In this document: positions 787 through 28,392 of the stretch, piece by piece
How the letters are laid out: each line of letters starts with the position of its first letter
Numbering within the stretch: position 1 is the stretch's first letter
From: a virus
Lineage: Duplodnaviria > Heunggongvirae > Uroviricota > Caudoviricetes
Strand: one strand, 5' to 3'
Virus record (IMG/VR): IMGVR_UViG_3300042286_000208
Location: 6,287-70,286 of that record
DNA: 64,000 nt
Made by a program: the position numbers and the translations under genes
The notes under the pieces: generated by a model
Told to the model about the DNA's origin: nothing
Seen by the model: only the letters and a program-made list of their open reading frames with translations
Databases searched by the model: none

Positions 787-3700
787 TTATTCCTCCATTT
801 CTATTATTTCTTCATCGAAGAACCAGTCGTCTTCTAATTTTAATTCTGATCAAATAACTAAATCTTCAGCAAATATCAATGTTTCTCTTGCATTACTTAA
901 ATCTAACTGATGACTTTCTTCATATAGAGTTACTTTATAGCTCATAAAGAAAGAAAGTAGAGAGATTAGGAAGTTCAGGTATTCTTCGTCAGAAAAGTTT
1001 TTGCTTATTGTATTGACAGTGTTTAATAGAGAATATTCTTCAGCACCTGTCATGAACGACAGAATTGTATTTAAACTATTCAATATCGAATTATATTTAG
1101 GCAAGTTCTCTATCTTTTCTGTCTCTGTTATTGTTTCTTGTCTCAACAAATCAACAAAATCTTGCATGAAGTCAGGTAAATCACTATAATTTGTTCCATG
1201 GGTGACTTCTGTCAATATTGTTTCCATCGTCTCATCGTTATAAACACTATCTGATCTTTCAAAGAAAGTTTCAATAACTAAATTAAGTATTCTAACAAAA
1301 GTATTGTTAATAGCTAAGGTATTTGTTACTGATGAATCTTTTAACGTATAATCTTCTTTAAATATTCTATTTTGTGTATAATCCAATAACATTTGTAATA
1401 AAGATCTTAGATTTACTGAATATAAATTACCTATATTAATTGTTTGAGATGAAATACCGTCTATAGCCATTAATTTTAAATATTTTGCCTTAGTTGCTAT
1501 ATAATCGGCTGTAGGTATCTCTATAATTGATATTAAGTTTGTAGATTCTAAAAGATCCAGAATAAATGTTGCTGAGTTTTGATAATCTATCGAGGAATAA
1601 CCAAAACCTAATAATAGTTTTCTTAGTTTATCACTAAAACTATTTTCAACTTTTCCGCTTTGTAATGTTCCATCTAATCTAGAAGTTAAATATGCTTTAC
1701 TTCCTGGAACTGCTTTCACATTATTGATATCTGTTTCATATGCATATCTATTCATAGAGAAAATTGTGCCTTCGATTGAATCATTACTAAGTAAATCGTT
1801 ATCAACTTTGTCTTTTAAGAATTCTTCAATTTCCTCCGGAGTTATATTTCCTATTATTTCTTTAATTTCAGTCTCGAAGTTAGCTAGTTTAGTACTCAAA
1901 TCTGTTAACTTAGGTAAACCATAAAATTTATCGTAAACTTCTCCAGACGTATCTTGTGGTTCTCAAGGCGATAGTACTTCCCCTAGATGTGCATTTATAA
2001 ATTTAATATATTTCACTATATCCGTGTATTTTATATTGGTTAATGAAATATAATCATCCGAATAGCTTTCAATTGTAAGATCGTATTTCATATTATCTAA
2101 CAAGTTATCTAAAATAGACATAATATACATATTCATTATCTTAGCTGTTTCCATATTGATGGATGCAGATATAGAAAGATATTTTGTTTTGGATATATTT
2201 AGGTTTAAACCGTCAGATCCATTTATAAATTCTTGGGTGATATCTTTACTTCAATAACCATCATCCTTTACAAATTCTTCATATCCCACTGTTGTATTTG
2301 AATCAACTCTGTTTTTAATACTCGTAATAGGTCTTGGTGTTCCTTCTGGTAAATTTATAAATACAGTCTCATCTTTAGTTGGGTCATATTTAACTATATT
2401 AATGATTTCTGGTGATGATGAAGGTATTGATTCATAAGGATTTATTATTTCTTGAGTTGTAAACACTGTGTTAGAGGGTGTTAATACCGATACATATTTT
2501 ATTTTTTCAGTAGTGTCATACCATGTGTATCCCACGGTATCGACAGATATGCCATCTTCATCAGTGTAATTATATGTTTCTGGTTCTGATGTAGGAAGAA
2601 CTATATTTTCTTCTACTCAAATAGTGCCGTTATGTGTGTATAAAATATGATTAACTGTATCATACCACATGTCTCCTTCGACTGGTTCGTTTATTACGGT
2701 TGAAGGAACACTCTCTCCCAAGTCCCAAGCACCATCTACATAGGTGTAAAGAGTTGTAGTTGCATTATTATATCATCTATAAGGGATAGGTTTCTCAACT
2801 GTATTTATTGGTGTTGGTTCTCATGAACCCACTTCTCCAACAACTGTTCAAGTATATACATTACCGTTATAATATCATTTATCTACATAATTAATTGAAT
2901 TTTTAGTAGATTTAGCTATGTAGTATTCATTGATAGCTATTTCATATTCATTACTAGATTCGTTAAGCATGTCTTCAATTAATTTCTTAACTCTTCTGGT
3001 TCCTTTGTTTTTAATTAAATTATTGTAATTTCTAATAACTGACATTTTATAGTCAAATGATCCATAGAAATTGTCATATCTATTAAGATCACTCAAACCA
3101 AAACTATTTAAGAAGTTATCAATATCTTCTGAACTATAGCTATCAAGATGTTTATGTTTCGATACTTTTTGATTAAAATATCTATCTAATGCCATTGTTA
3201 TTAAAAGAATAAACTCATATAGAGGGTACTCGTCATCATTAACTAATGATTTAAGTAGTAAATTTCTAAAATAATATTCTCTGACATCTTGATAGCTTCT
3301 AAGGAATAGTGCTATTTCTTGTTTATGCTCTGAATTAATACCATAGTAATATGTTTTGTGGCTATCAAGGTGGTAACCAACTATATCCATGTATTCTTTT
3401 TCTCTAAAGTTAATAACGTTACCCGTTAAAGATTTGACACTAGGGTAATAATGGTTGTTATCTACATCTAGTAATGTATAAGATGTTATATCTAGAGCGG
3501 TAGCTAATTCTCATGCGGATTCATTGAAGTTATTAATATAAATATTATTGAATAAAGAATTTATACTACCAGTTCTTGTTAGCCAGTTAGCTATATATGT
3601 CTCTACCTGATCTTGCATAAATAAATCATACACATCTTTGTTGAGTTCTTTATATTGGAAAGTAAGAGACAACATTCTTTCCCCTGTTATATCTAAGTCC

Positions 3701-5253
3701 TCTCCATTTATTTTTATTTTAAGAATATCGATCATATTTTGAAGTTTTGTTTTGATATCATTATTTACTTTATGTACAACATTAATATAATTAATTGGTC
3801 TGCTTTCAGATATTTGATTTATTTCATATGTATTAACAGCCTTATCTTTTTCTGCAGATATAGTCCCACTCAATGTTTTTATATCCATCAAAATAAAGAA
3901 TTTATACAGATAAATGTAGAGGTGACTTCTAATTACCTCTGACAAGCTATTTTTATAAGTTTCAAAACTGGTTGAATCATCAATAGCATCTGGTGAATCA
4001 CTTATGAAGAAATAGTTTGATACATCAACTTTAAAATCAACTAGTATATCTGGGTCTGTAATCGGATCTGTTCCGTTATATCATCTGAACATATCATTAA
4101 GAAAGCCTTCGAAAGTTGTTTCGTATGAGTCAGGAAAGTCACCTGCCACATAACTGTTTACTGAGTTTTTAAATATGATATGTAACTCATCAGTCTCAAT
4201 ACCTGTAAATTTAATTTGATCATTTACATGTTTTATAGCATCTCTAGCTAATTTTGATACATTGATATTTAGATTAGTAACGCTGTTGAAATAATTTACT
4301 GTGTTGTTTTGAGCATACTCAGTAAGATTTTTTAATATTATACCATTCAGTATGCCATTTGTTTTTATTTCCTCAAGTAAGTTTCTTAGATAACTTTTTT
4401 TAACAGAAAGAACTAGCTCTGTGTTCTCATCTATTTCTTCCTGATCATTTCCTGTTATCATACCCTTGTCGATTAATTTAGTCTTCGTCTCTTCCGATAT
4501 ATACATATTATCAATAAATCTATACATATCTCTTTCAAAGTTACTGATTATATTCGCAGAATATCCTTCAACGATATATTCTCTAGATTTATTATCCTCT
4601 GTCTCCACTAAATCAAGTTTTATTTTTGCTACGACTTGTCCATTATTTATCAGGTTATATTCTATAGGATTTGAACCATCATGTATAAGTAATTCAAAGT
4701 CCATGTTTAACACCATTGTGTTTCCGTTCAGACCTAGATTTAATATTTTACCATCCACGCTGAATTGATTACTCTTTAGTCTGAAAGATTTTACAAAATT
4801 TTCTCTATAGACATTATTAACATAAGGGATAGAAAAAGAATATGTTCTACTACTATCTTGATTTATGTTGTTAGGTGTATCAATAAGTGTTACAGTATAA
4901 GTAAACTTTTCTGATATATTAAAAATATTATATATAGCATTATCACCGATGTTAAAAACCATATATTTATTATATAGGATCATCATCTCAATAAGATCGA
5001 CAGTCGCTATAGGGTTAACAAACTGAGTGAAATATCTATAGGCATATTTATACATCATATTAGATAGATCGTTTTCTGTATAATCTTGTCTTTTTTTGAA
5101 TAAGATATTATGAGATATAAACTCAGTGAGGTTGTTTAAAGCAACCGCGTCAGAACCACTAACTTTGTAAGGCGATGTATAATTGCTCAGCGCCATTCTT
5201 ATTAAGTCTATTTTTTCATTTCTAGTTGCTTTTAAATTGTCAAAATTTGTCAT
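787..5253 (-). CDS. Large virion structural protein, probable baseplate wedge (~1488 aa, 10 TGA=Trp)
   Basis: Six track ORFs (850-5262) are in one frame and joined only by TGA; GAGGTG SD before ATG 5253; first TAA at 787-789; upstream of baseplate-type gene. Confidence 0.75.
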
Positions 5254-10833: not shown

Positions 10834-10883
10834 CAACTGGGCTGGTCGAACACACCCCGGTCTAGTAGACCCTGGTCCACCAA

Positions 10884-10911
10884 CGACGGGGAATTTCCCC
10901 GTCATTTTTTT
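10884..10911 (+). terminator. Intrinsic terminator
   Basis: GACGGGG-AATTT-CCCCGTC followed by T7. Confidence 0.85.
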
Positions 10912-24022: not shown

Positions 24023-24038
24023 TGAATAATTAATTATA
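24023..24038 (+). promoter_or_regulatory. Putative late/middle promoter motif
   Basis: Exact 16-mer, heads nrdJ operon. Confidence 0.75.
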
Positions 24039-24105: not shown

Positions 24106-24681
24106 ATGAATTACAACATAAAACAGAGCTTTAAGCACACTGATTTACAGGTTGGAGATTTAATGTATGATGCATTAAATGATGTTATGGTTAGAGTTGC
24201 TTATATAGGTAGCGTTGTTAGACAAAAAGTAAAAGAATTAAAGATATCAGGGATGTTAGATATCTCATCAAAAACAACTGAAGTTGAAATAAGACAATAT
24301 GTTTTTGAAGATATGGAAGATAAAATTATTTTTATGATTAATGTTATCGGTAAAGACGGTTTGTTACCACAATTAGAAAATGGAAAACCTAGATTTAGAC
24401 ACTTGATGAGATCAATCGAACCAACGATAATTTGGCCTTCGAATCCACTTCCACTACAACCACAGCCAAATCCTATTTATCCAGCATACCCATCGACACC
24501 TACATATCCAGATCCTAACTATCCTTATTGGACTTGGTGTTCAGATAAATCAGACTCAAGTGATTTAACCGGAACGGTAACGACACAAGGCATGGTGCAA
24601 ATGGATATTTTTGGTGGTGGATTAGATCTAAATACAAATATAAGCATTGATAATTTATCACAACTTGATGCAAAAAACTAA
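24106..24681 (+). CDS. Hypothetical protein with Pro/Tyr-rich segment
   Basis: GGAGG SD; PIYPAYPSTPTYPDPNYP. Confidence 0.75.
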   Translation: MNYNIKQSFKHTDLQVGDLMYDALNDVMVRVAYIGSVVRQKVKELKISGMLDISSKTTEVEIRQYVFEDMEDKIIFMINVIGKDGLLPQLENGKPRFRHLMRSIEPTIIWPSNPLPLQPQPNPIYPAYPSTPTYPDPNYPYWTWCSDKSDSSDLTGTVTTQGMVQMDIFGGGLDLNTNISIDNLSQLDAKN

Positions 24682-24700: not shown

Positions 24701-25744
24701 ATGAAGGTAATCAAAAGAAACGGAAAAGTAGAAGCATTTGACATCAGAAAGATTGCTGATGCACTATACAGAGTGTATCGTGAAACAGGGGATAGAACCA
24801 AAACAAAAAAAGTATGTAAAGAACAAGCAAAAGAAATATCTGTAAAATATTTAGAGAATAATGTAGATATTGATATAGAATCTATTCAAGACGATGTAGA
24901 AAATTACTTGATGGAAAATAAAGAATTTACTGCGGCTAGAGCATATATTAAATACCGTGAAAAACAAAAAGCCGATAGAGAAAATCCATGGTCTGACAAC
25001 GATGAAAGACAGGATTTAATCTTAGGTAAGTATTTAATCAAGGGAGAAACAAAGAGAGATTTCTTAAAAAGAATTTCTTTTGGTAATTCAAAATTAGAAA
25101 AGATATTCAGACATAGAGAAGGTATTTGGGGAGGTCGTAACCTTTATGCGATTGGCAGAGAAGGCAACATCACAGGATCTAATTGTTATGTTGCAACAGA
25201 TCCACAAGATTCTCTAGAAGATATTTATAGAGCAGATTTTGAAATTGCTCGTACCTACTCCTATGGTGGTGGACAAGGTATGAACTTGTCTAATATTCGA
25301 CCTAAAGGAGCTAAAGTAAATAATAGTTCAAACACAACACCGGGTGTTATGGTGTTTGCTGAGAAATACTCACACACAACACTTAATACTCAACAAGAAA
25401 GTAGACGTGGTGCATTGATGTTGGTTATGAACATTGATCACCCTGATGTTATTGACTTTATTACATCTAAGTTGGATCTTAATAAGATTAATGGTGCTAA
25501 TATTAGTTTAGCGATCACAGATGATTTTATGAAGGCATATAATGCTGATGAATTATGGACAATGACATTTGAAACAAAATACGAAACTATTAAGAAAACT
25601 ATGAAAGCTAGGGACTTAATGTCACTTGTTTCATATGCCGCTCATACAATGGGAGACCCTGGTGTGATATTTATAGATAGAATGAACGATTATCATCTAT
25701 TATCAGAATATGAAGATGTCGTATTCAGTGCAACAAATCCATGT
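24701..25744 (+). CDS. nrdJ: Class II ribonucleotide reductase, exon 1 (with ATP cone)
   Basis: MKVIKRNG ATP cone, GGGQGMNLS, RRGALM; ends at TNPC. Confidence 0.9.
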
Positions 25745-26669
25745 AAACAAACCCGCTGCATGGCATAAAAGAAATTTTATGAAATAATCGTTAGTGAATT
25801 GCTGGAAAACTCTTATATTAAATAAGAACAATCAGCAGCCAAGCTCTTCAAATAAGAGAAGGTTCAGAGATTAAAACGTAATAAAAATAAAAATATGAAA
25901 TTAGAAAGGATCTAATAATATGAAAAGTTCAGAGTTAAAAGGATATTTAACAGGACTAATACTTGGTGATGGTACTATCGATAAAGGTACAACAAAAAGA
26001 GCATTCAGAATAAAATCTATAAATTTTGATTTTATAGATAAAATAGAAAAGGATTTAAAAGATACAACAAATTGAGATATATTTGTAAAAGAATTTCAAG
26101 CCACAAATAAAGATGGGGTAAATAGAAAAGCATACAAGGAACTTGTTATTAAAGCAAATCCTTATTTTGCAAAAATATATCATTTCTTTTATGATGATTA
26201 TAAAAGAAGAGTGATATCTGAAAAGGCATTAAATTGGTTAAATCCAGAAGGGTTAGCTAATTGGTTTATGTCAGATGGATATATTACTCTAGTTGGAAAA
26301 ACAAAAGGTATTATAAAAGATAGAAGAGTTGAAATTAGTACAGATCGATATAAAAAAGAAGATCTATTAAAAATACAAAATTATTTTAAAACTAATTATG
26401 GATGAGATACTAGTATAATTGATAGAAAAAGAGGAAATCAATACAGAATTAGAATTTCACTATTATCAGCTCAACATTTTTTAACAATGATAGAACCTTA
26501 TGTTACAGAATCTTTTAAACATAAATTAAACTTGGCTTATGAAAATAAACCATACTGAATGACAGAAGAGTATTACCAAGTTATGTTACGAAGCGCTAAC
26601 CCCTTAACGGAATCTAATTAAGATAGACGAAGGTGAAGATATAATCCGATTGTGTTATAATAAACACAG
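25745..26669 (+). mobile_element. Group I intron 1 in nrdJ (925 nt) with homing endonuclease
   Basis: P1 CCATGT/GCATGG with U.G splice pair; GAATTGCTGGAAA, AATCAGCAGCCAAG, GTTCAGAGATTA and AAGATATAATCC core elements; terminal G. Confidence 0.9.
25920..26621 (+). CDS. Intron-encoded LAGLIDADG homing endonuclease (233 aa, 3 TGA=Trp)
   Basis: YLTGLILGDG and GLANWFMSDG motifs; open only if TGA=Trp. Confidence 0.85.
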
Positions 26670-26690
26670 GGCGAACAACCATTAATGGCT
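26670..26690 (+). CDS. nrdJ: nrdJ micro-exon 2 (21 nt, GEQPLMA)
   Basis: Restores TNPC-GEQPL-MANGS-CNLGS catalytic loop with canonical spacing. Confidence 0.9.
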
Positions 26691-26951
26691 TAACCAAACA
26701 CTTAAAAAGTGTAGGCCCTTCATGTAGTAATATATGAAGAAAACCCTTTGAATTGCTGGAAAATCTTACCAAGTAATGTTGAAGACAATCAGCAGCCAAG
26801 CCTCAATAAGAGGAAGGTTCAACGACTATCTCGAAAGAGAGTAGGGTCAAGTGACTCGAAGCGGAGGGAATCCTATTAAGGATTATGATATAGTCTGTTC
26901 TATATGGAAACATATAGAGATAAGAATAACGAACTTATCGCAACAATAAAG
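26691..26951 (+). mobile_element. Group I intron 2 in nrdJ (261 nt, no ORF)
   Basis: P1 GGCT/GGCC with U.G; GAATTGCTGGAAA, AATCAGCAGCCAAG, GTTCAACGACTA and GATATAGTC; terminal G. Confidence 0.9.
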
Positions 26952-28079
26952 AATGGAAGTTGTAATTTAGGAAGTATTAATTTTAATGCTTTTGTCAGAG
27001 AACCATTCACTGACAGGGCATATTTTGACTACGATCGATTTGAAAAAGTAGTCATGGAAATGACATGGGGATTAGACGAACTATTAACTATGTTAGGAGA
27101 CAGACATGCTCTTCAAGCACAAGTACAACATGTGCATGATTGGAGAGAAATAGGGCTCGGAATTATGGGCTTGGCCGACCTTGCTTTAAGCATGAAGCTT
27201 GGGTATGGAACACCAGAGTTTATTGCAGAAACACATAAAATTATGTCTTTCATGGCAAACAAAGCTGCTCAAGCGAGTGCTTTAAGAGCAAAAGAACTTG
27301 GTGTATTCCCACGATATAGCTTTGATAAGGTATCTAAATCTAGATTCTATCAAGAGGTATACACAGAAGAAACAAAAGATATGATTGAGAATTTCGGATT
27401 AAGAAACTCAAGATTGTTAAGTGTTGCACCAACTGGTTCTATTAGTAACATTTTAGGAGTTAGTGGGGGTGTTGAACCGTTTTTCATGTTGTCGTATAAT
27501 AGAACAATTAAATCTATGTTCGAAACAGAAAGAACAATTGAAGTTGTTGAAAAAACTCCGGCTAAACTTATGAAGGAAATGGGCGTCGAACATACATCTG
27601 AATTACCAGAATGGGCTAAAGTAACATCTCAAAATATTGACTTCCAAGACAGAGCTATTGTTCAATCAACAATTCAAAAATATGTAGACACAGCAATTAG
27701 TTCAACATTCAACCTTCACAATTCAGCTACAACTAAAGATGTAGAAAACATCTATACAACAGGTTGGGGTCTTGGGTTTAAAGGAGCAACTGTCTTTAGA
27801 GATAACTGTAAAAAGATTGGTATCTTAACAGGCGGTGGAGAATCATTTGATAAAAATCCCGCACCAAAACCAGGTTTTGAAATTCAAGAAGAGTGGTTCA
27901 ATAAGAAAACAAAAGAAATGAAGCGTTATATCACCTACATTACTGTTGATGATACAGATTATGTAGCTGAGAAAATTGAACGCGAAATGTGTCCTGTTTG
28001 TGGTGAACATCTTGTTAAACAAGGTGGTTGTACTAAATGTAGTAGTCCAGAATGTTACTATGAAAAATGTGCTATTTAA
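26952..28079 (+). CDS. nrdJ: Class II ribonucleotide reductase, exon 3
   Basis: NGSCNLGSINF, REIGLGIMGLAD, SVAPTGSIS, KGATVFRD, C-terminal Cys cluster. Confidence 0.9.
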   Translation, partial: NGSCNLGSINFNAFVREPFTDRAYFDYDRFEKVVMEMTWGLDELLTMLGDRHALQAQVQHVHDWREIGLGIMGLADLALSMKLGYGTPEFIAETHKIMSFMANKAAQASALRAKELGVFPRYSFDKVSKSRFYQEVYTEETKDMIENFGLRNSRLLSVAPTGSISNILGVSGGVEPFFMLSYNRTIKSMFETERTIEVVEKTPAKLMKEMGVEHTSELPEWAKVTSQNIDFQDRAIVQSTIQKYVDTAISSTFNLHNSATTKDVENIYTTGWGLGFKGATVFRDNCKKIGILTGGGESFDKNPAPKPGFEIQEEWFNKKTKEMKRYITYITVDDTDYVAEKIEREMCPVCGEHLVKQGGCTKCSSPECYYEKCAI

Positions 28080-28092
28080 TTAAGGTGTAAAC

Positions 28093-28392
28093 ATGGATAA
28101 ACAAAAGATTATAGAATTGAGTAAAGAAAAGACAATAGCCCTTGATTTTTACGCAGATTGATGTTCTTCATGTGTGATTATAAAACCGTGAGTAGAAGAA
28201 GCAGCGCAAGAATCAGGTGTTGAAACGCTATACATCAATATAGATGAATATGACAAAGATCAATTAAAGTCTAATTTTGGTGTTATAGCAATACCTAATA
28301 TTCAATTCTGACGAGATGGTAAAAAAGTAGATTTTTCCGTTGGAAAATTGCCTAAAGAAAAAATATTCGACAAATTTAACAAATATAAATAG
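28093..28392 (+). CDS. trxA: Thioredoxin (99 aa, 3 TGA=Trp)
   Basis: DFYAD(TGA)CSSC = WCxxC; AIPNI cis-Pro loop; next to nrdJ; missing from track. Confidence 0.9.

Follow-up and report, generated by a model that had tools for sequence, protein, structure and literature searches.

The region at positions 24701–28079 (plus strand) of the window, the whole 64,000-nt stretch of phage DNA analysed here, was identified as a single gene, nrdJ, encoding a class II ribonucleotide reductase (RNR) in three exons. Very probably it is one functional nrdJ from a giant, uncultured phage in which TGA stands for Trp, carrying in its catalytic loop two independent, predicted self-splicing group I introns that could leave in either order, with the intron-encoded endonuclease made late. 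In the proposed mechanism, the two introns would have invaded the catalytic loop, the most conserved stretch of nrdJ. Intron 1, placed between the radical Cys and the Gly-Glu (TNPC|GE), would move by its own LAGLIDADG endonuclease; intron 2, ORF-less and of Twort type, sits 21 nt downstream (MA|NG) and would be carried along by co-conversion when intron 1 homes. Each ribozyme would use its own internal guide, forming a P1 with a U.G pair, to recognise the 5' exon that belongs to it and would then excise itself with the help of guanosine, and exon 1, a seven-codon micro-exon and exon 3 would be ligated to give a normal 730-aa enzyme. The features of the locus were as follows.

24701–25744, plus strand: nrdJ exon 1, 348 codons; ATP-cone and the opening half of the RNR barrel, with TNPC supplying the Asn and the radical Cys
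25745–26669, plus strand: intron 1, predicted group I, 925 nt, subgroup IA-like, terminal G26669
25920–26621, plus strand: predicted LAGLIDADG homing endonuclease gene inside intron 1, 233 aa, Pfam PF03161
26670–26690, plus strand: micro-exon, 21 nt, GGC GAA CAA CCA TTA ATG GCT, encoding GEQPLMA
26691–26951, plus strand: intron 2, predicted group I, 261 nt, ORF-less, Twort orf142 type, terminal G26951
26952–28079, plus strand: nrdJ exon 3, 375 codons and stop; NGSCNLGS (second redox Cys) and the remaining barrel

Under the standard code, the locus contained two long ORFs, 24701–25768 (355 aa) and 26904–28079 (391 aa), both pieces of an RNR large subunit. Exon 1 matched Pfam PF03477 and PF02867, reaching position 213 of the barrel-domain profile, and exon 3 matched PF02867 at profile positions 223–522. 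The best NCBIfam family for both exons was TIGR02504 (adenosylcobalamin-dependent, class II NrdJ), with 172.2 bits for exon 1 (profile 23–282) and 228.5 bits for exon 3 (profile 291–602), against a cut-off of 399.95 that is set for the whole protein. Exon 1 ended in ...ACA AAT CCA TGT at 25744, exon 3 began with AAT GGA AGT TGT at 26952, and the C-terminus of exon 3 was a zinc-finger tail (CxxC...C...C). The joined exons comprised 2193 nt, encoding 730 aa and a stop, with no internal stops.

Alignment of the joined protein with 40 full-length intronless homologues (728–734 aa) showed no gap in the junction region, and the stretch TNPCGEQPLMANGSCNLGS was identical letter for letter in several of them. 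These homologues were named adenosylcobalamin-dependent RNR and were 60–77% identical over exon 3. In alignment with Thermotoga maritima NrdJ (1XJE), exon 1 extended to the radical Cys322 in TNPC and exon 3 started from residue 332, just before the redox Cys333; the stretch absent from both long ORFs was the Gly323-Glu324 region. Ten residues separate Cys322 from Cys333 in 1XJE, the same number as in the joined protein, and the micro-exon includes the catalytic Glu, equivalent to Glu324. On the TIGR02504 profile, exon 1 stopped at position 282 and exon 3 resumed at 291 with its second residue, leaving a gap of seven positions. Three independent comparisons (homologues, 1XJE and TIGR02504) thus required exactly seven residues between exon 1 and exon 3. 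In group I introns, a U precedes the 5' splice site and a G precedes the 3' splice site. This rule leaves neither intron room to shift, so the coordinates of an earlier note on this DNA, made from the sequence alone, are right: all four of its junctions hold, as does its placement of the catalytic Glu in a 21-nt micro-exon, and the intronless relatives agree with it. On these alignments, the gene is assigned to class II nrdJ, with the predicted catalytic Asn, Cys and Glu and the redox Cys pair.

Comparison of intron 1 with Rfam RF00028 (curated cut-off 50 bits) gave two separate matches: 25797–25875 (P3–P7; 40.6 bits, E 1.5e-8) and 26528–26669 (P8–P9 to the terminal G; 21.7 bits, E 0.0066). 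As a whole the intron fell below the cut-off because the model cannot bridge the ORF insertion of about 700 nt between the halves. The ORF lies in what is the P7.1/P7.2 region of subgroup IA introns. The helices of intron 1 were placed by hand and their pairing was verified by script; P5 and P6 were also fully paired. The others were as follows.

25739-44/25758-63, plus strand: P1, CCAUGU/GCAUGG, 6/6 pairs, U25744.G25758 at the splice site
25754-57, plus strand: P10 guide, CGCU with the first four micro-exon bases GGCG, 4/4 pairs, adjoining P1
25764-70/25775-81, plus strand: P2, fully paired, GAAA loop
25790-96/26594-600, plus strand: P3, long-range, 7/7 pairs
25800-05/25832-37, plus strand: P4, fully paired
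25869-73/26642-46, plus strand: P7, 5/5 pairs
26602-05/26630-33, plus strand: P8, fully paired
26651-56/26663-68, plus strand: P9, 6/6 pairs

An intron with the same core was found at the identical TNPC|GE junction of a distant RNR gene in an IMG/VR contig of an unrelated standard-code virus (L094). Its guides covaried with the exons: P1 was CCUUGU/GCAAGG, against CCAUGU/GCAUGG in intron 1, and P10 was CUCU/GGAG, against CGCU/GGCG. The differences in P2, P3 and P7 were also compensating. The L094 coding sequence is continuous after the intron, so an intron of this type exists on its own elsewhere. These comparisons support the assignment of intron 1 to a group I lineage of its own, specific to the TNPC|GE site.

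The ORF inside intron 1 matched Pfam PF03161 (LAGLIDADG_2) with 80.3 bits (cut-off 25; profile 4–166 of 168), and both LAGLIDADG-type motifs, LILGDG and WFMSDG, were present in its translation. A Shine-Dalgarno-like GAAAGGA stood upstream, and the final codons (about 19) overlapped the ribozyme elements P7.2, P3' and P8. The ORF was intact only under code 4 (TGA = Trp), with three in-frame TGA at residues 52, 163 and 213. It was 59% identical to the LAGLIDADG ORF of the L094 intron, in which the residues at these positions are F, Y and W; aromatic residues in a standard-code homologue support the reading of TGA as Trp. Matches among cultured phages numbered two, both weak (27% identity). Intron 2 had no ORF, in agreement with the earlier claim of an endonuclease in intron 1 only.

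Trp was encoded by two TGG and three TGA codons in the endonuclease ORF, as against eight TGG and no TGA in the nrdJ exons (three TGG in exon 1 and five in exon 3). Since the endonuclease has three TGA and nrdJ none, the endonuclease should be translatable only when TGA-to-Trp decoding is on, and would thus be made late in infection. The idea that in-frame TGA codons hold back intron endonucleases in TGA-recoded phages has been published (bioRxiv 10.1101/2021.08.26.457843). The promoter-like word ATAATTAATTAT, a candidate late-promoter word of this phage, had 17 exact copies in the window, and 21 copies with at most one mismatch, against 3.2 expected by chance. No copy lay inside intron 1; the nearest was the exact copy at 24026–24037, upstream of an ORF at 24106–24681 and of nrdJ. 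Late expression of the endonuclease would therefore depend on its TGA codons alone. Directly after the TGA-free nrdJ, a thioredoxin gene (28093–28392 of the window) had three TGA codons for Trp and no TGG, one of these TGA being the Trp codon in the active-site motif WCxxC. The time at which translation is possible would accordingly differ between the reductase and the thioredoxin, its likely reductant. Elsewhere in the window, at 10838–10900, an Rfam match to DUF3800-XI RNA (RF02975; 54.9 bits, cut-off 37.8) lay in a GC-rich patch (62%) of this AT-rich phage.

Intron 2 matched RF00028 over the full model (1–253) at 26682–26917, with 101.2 bits (cut-off 50). The comparison with Rfam group I models that the earlier note proposed as a check thus gave a match over the full model for intron 2 and matches in two halves for intron 1. 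The earlier description of both introns as having a U.G P1 helix and a terminal G was confirmed, with six of six P1 pairs in each and the terminal G at 26669 and 26951. Intron 2 had the following helices.

26687-92/26712-17, plus strand: P1, 6/6 pairs, U26690.G26714; formed by the final four bases of the micro-exon plus two of the intron
26718-25/26732-39, plus strand: P2, fully paired
26744-50/26862-68, plus strand: P3, fully paired
26824-28/26891-95, plus strand: P7, fully paired
26829-32/26837-40, plus strand: P7.1, fully paired
26869-74/26879-84, plus strand: P8, fully paired
26900-06/26911-17, plus strand: P9, fully paired
26919-24/26934-39, plus strand: P9.1, hairpin GAUAAG/CUUAUC around the loop AAUAACGAA

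No convincing P10 was found for intron 2, with three of four pairs, and these weak. A twintron reading was rejected: the introns stand side by side with a 21-nt coding exon between them, and each has a complete P1–P9.

It is very unlikely that one or both introns have decayed and no longer splice, leaving a dead gene or one that gives fragments, as in the split nrdJ-a/nrdJ-b and Aeh1 NrdA. Split RNR genes without splicing are known in phages (PMC3653736), and the missing clear P10 of intron 2 fits such a reading. The core helices are nevertheless all intact in both introns, intron 2 scores twice the Rfam cut-off, and the exons, free of frameshifts and stops, match working homologues over their full length with 60–77% identity. 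Moreover, the micro-exon has neither a start codon nor a ribosome-binding site of its own, and a 7-aa peptide bearing the catalytic Glu could not serve as a separate subunit. A functional gene restored by splicing is the preferred reading.

The earlier note held that so short a micro-exon constrains the formation of P1 and P10 and the order of splicing. This was not borne out. P10 of intron 1 uses micro-exon bases 1–4 (26670–26673) and P1 of intron 2 uses bases 18–21 (26687–26690), with 13 nt between them, and a 23-nt exon is workable in phage Twort. As the two reactions would use opposite ends of the micro-exon and the pairing regions do not overlap, pairing imposes no order and either order should work; this prediction from base pairing leaves aside steric effects of two ribozymes 21 nt apart.

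The internal guides paired with their own 5' exons at 6/6 and 5/6 positions, and crosswise at 3/6 and 1/6; the P10 guide of intron 1 paired with the start of exon 3 at 3/4. Skipping of the micro-exon would give a product that is in frame and lacks the catalytic Glu, as had been pointed out before. Each guide fits only its own 5' exon, so skipping is possible but not favoured on the predicted pairings. A speculative extension, to which little credence is given, is that the introns are more than two parasites: occasional skipping would yield a NrdJ without GEQPLMA that could poison or tune the reductase late in infection, and intron 2 may owe its survival solely to a position within the co-conversion tract of the intron 1 endonuclease, the pair spreading as one cassette.

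Comparison with relatives showed six insertion points within about 40 codons of nrdJ (DP|GV, T|GC, C|G, G|E, A|N and G|S), together with an intein at TNP|C. The closest split relatives were the proteins P0002–P0005. L089, a relative with 87–95% amino acid identity, was interrupted twice: at DP|GV by an intron of Twort type and at NG|SC by an intervening sequence of 273 nt, of a second type. This second type was also present at G|E in L002 and L005, and the L005 copy had a GIY-YIG ORF. In another locus (L008), a Twort-type intron lay within the Cys codon. The intein (CVTGDTLI ... VLTGN|C; L006:3024–3970) interrupted a distant nrdJ exactly at its radical Cys, a single codon away from where intron 1 sits, and tblastn placed an interruption of the same size at the same TNP|C position in L007 and L010. 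The loop was intron-free in alleles (P0243 and P0249) at least 90% identical to exon 1, and intron-free alleles in close relatives are as expected for mobile introns. Judged from these sequences, mobile elements cluster densely in the nrdJ catalytic loop of the present phage group, which is a hot spot.

The second-type intervening sequence was located at L089:352–624 (NG|SC), L002:3647–3982 and L005:~3240–3982 (both G|E). Its boundaries were group-I-like, with a U before it and a G at its end, and a 7-bp P1 with a U.G pair was read by eye in the L089 element; RF00028 gave no match to the type even at E up to 10. Many 374-aa ORFs of the protein collection start with MSCNLGS, the Met being the last AUG of the NG|SC element. 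A segment duplication in L002, L003 and L014, considered on the basis of overlapping tblastn pieces, was rejected in favour of a single intron at G|E. In addition, the gene was interrupted at the GVSGGVEP motif (query residue ~532), over about 920 nt, in L083:728–1650 and the C-terminus of P0243, and further interruptions, near residue ~424 in L072 and ~190 in L008, hint at additional intron sites in the gene family.

A second genome with both introns was found neither in searches of IMG/VR with the exon 1 and exon 3 proteins nor in a scan of metagenome contigs (80 loci). A degenerate pattern for loci lacking intron 1 and carrying intron 2, and an exact 40-mer across the micro-exon, likewise found no second such genome. 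This absence, the clear variation among close relatives in the introns carried, and a micro-exon shorter than most assembly k-mers would all be in keeping with an assembly chimera, in which an intron-1-only allele and an intron-2-only allele were joined through their shared 21-nt exon word. This explanation is very unlikely, given that the ORFs that cross the exon 1/intron 1 and the intron 2/exon 3 boundaries (P0001/P0241) were each recorded on five contigs, the longest being the present one of 134 kb, that with k above 21 a chimeric path would need reads spanning both junctions, and that no single-intron allele of the present phage was found. An allele with two introns is thus retained as the better account.

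The two introns have GAATTGCTGGAAAA and ACAATCAGCAGCCAAG in common, and the earlier statement that their core segments are near-identical is literally true, although the same words occur in other introns of the subgroup. Further shared core words were GAAUUGCUGGAAAA, ACAAUCAGCAGCCAAG, GAAGGUUCA and GAUAUA(A/G)UC. The L089 and L094 introns carried the same words or one-base variants of them, and the Twort introns shared GAUAUA(A/G)UC. In global alignment, intron 1 without its ORF was 57% identical to intron 2, with the identity concentrated in the core words. When intron pairs were scored by one common measure (intron 1 again without the ORF), intron 2 scored 0.78 with the L089 intron (located about 27 codons upstream in a close relative), 0.76 with Twort I2 and 0.69 with intron 1; intron 1 scored 0.68 with Twort I3 and 0.67 with the third intron of the genome.

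The earlier note had also offered local duplication as an origin of the pair. The exact core words and the common subgroup are what such an event would leave, and yet these segments occur throughout the subgroup and intron 2 resembles the Twort orf142 and L089 introns more than it resembles intron 1, so duplication is unsupported. Identity between the two is no higher than to introns of other phages, they differ in peripheral helices, P1 guides and 3' ends, and each has closer relatives elsewhere. Duplication of one intron in place is accordingly judged highly improbable, and on sequence grounds the introns are assigned to different lineages of the same subgroup.

The third group I intron of the genome lies outside the window, at G000:C1:101551–101836 (minus strand; locus L093:1252–1537), and scored 60.4 bits. 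The ORF whose end it occupies is long and, on visual inspection, resembles a beta-type subunit of RNA polymerase. Immediately downstream comes an ORF of 307 aa in which KYDYS/HG-CP-C motifs recur and which may encode an endonuclease.

Intron 2 was 72–78% identical to introns of Twort-group staphylococcal phages, including 72–76% to orf142-I2 and orf142-I3. The Rfam model stops 34 nt short of the intron 2 splice site, and these 34 nt are the P9.1 hairpin and a 12-nt tail, GCAACAAUAAAG, ending in G26951. The same hairpin, with compensating changes, was present in Twort orf142-I2 and orf142-I3, in the Staphylococcus phage 110 intron and in the L089 intron, each followed by a tail of 11–12 nt that ends in G. 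Twort junctions set at the tail G reproduced the annotated 142-aa product exactly, which fixes the 3' splice site of intron 2 at 26951. A site elsewhere is the least probable of the alternatives: the Rfam alignment does end at G26917, and splicing at G26924 with the exon resuming at 26925 would keep the frame open, but use of 26917 would put exon 3 out of frame and lead to a stop, the nine residues added from G26924 (NNELIATIK) occur in none of 40 homologues and would break the Cys-to-Cys spacing, and 26918–26951 is the conserved hairpin and tail that ends at the product-yielding junctions in Twort orf142-I2 and orf142-I3.

The closest known system is orf142 of phage Twort, which has three group I introns (Landthaler & Shub 1999, PNAS 96:7005; AF132670.1) and for which exon skipping is reported. 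Exons of 345, 41, 23 and 20 nt, derived here from record AF132670.1, account for the annotated product of 142 aa; in phage, a 23-nt exon with a group I intron on either side has thus been known since 1999. Both loci have several introns in one phage gene, and the Twort introns are of the same type as intron 2, including P9.1 and the 3' tail. However, the Twort introns are near-copies of each other (0.83), whereas the present ones are of different lineages with different guides; both short Twort exons end in AGCAU, whereas the present exon ends fit only their own guides. The identical exon ends and near-copy introns would explain cross-splicing and exon skipping in Twort. There the host gene belongs to the tail region and skipping shifts the frame, while here an enzyme active site is interrupted and skipping stays in frame.

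Among phage RNR genes, Twort nrdE has two group I introns, Brochothrix phage A9 nrdE has three introns and an intein, and SPbeta bnrdE/bnrdF is a further case (PMC3653736). They resemble the present locus in having several self-splicing elements near catalytic codons of a phage RNR large subunit, one with a homing endonuclease; they differ in being class Ib nrdE with HNH-type or other endonucleases, in contrast to class II nrdJ with a LAGLIDADG type here. In placozoan mitochondrial cox1, a 1-nt micro-exon lies between two group IB introns (PMC5436844). There too, a pair of independent group I introns cuts off a very small exon that provides a residue essential for function, although that case is organellar, of subgroup IB and backed by RNA-seq, and its exon is 1 nt long as against 21 nt here. 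The TGA-recoded Agate phages have a TGA-rich group I intron endonuclease in an early gene (bioRxiv 10.1101/2021.08.26.457843). As here, TGA encodes Trp in the intron endonuclease but not in the gene that the intron interrupts, which should confine the enzyme to late infection; those phages are of another clade with another host gene, and the present intron has no late-promoter word.

The locus opens no new class of mechanism and is a clean new example of a known arrangement, of modest interest in itself. For annotation, its consequence is that gene callers render the reductase as two separate 'hypothetical' ORFs, 355 and 391 aa long, and leave out the catalytic Glu altogether. Many relatives are affected likewise, dozens of ORFs of 304–377 aa in the protein collection being exon fragments. 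As a model locus it is useful: it offers a compact natural case in which two unrelated predicted ribozymes, separated by 21 nt, divide an enzyme active site into three pieces, and it suits the study of homing-site choice, of the co-conversion of an ORF-less intron by the endonuclease of its neighbour, and of cross-talk between adjacent ribozymes.
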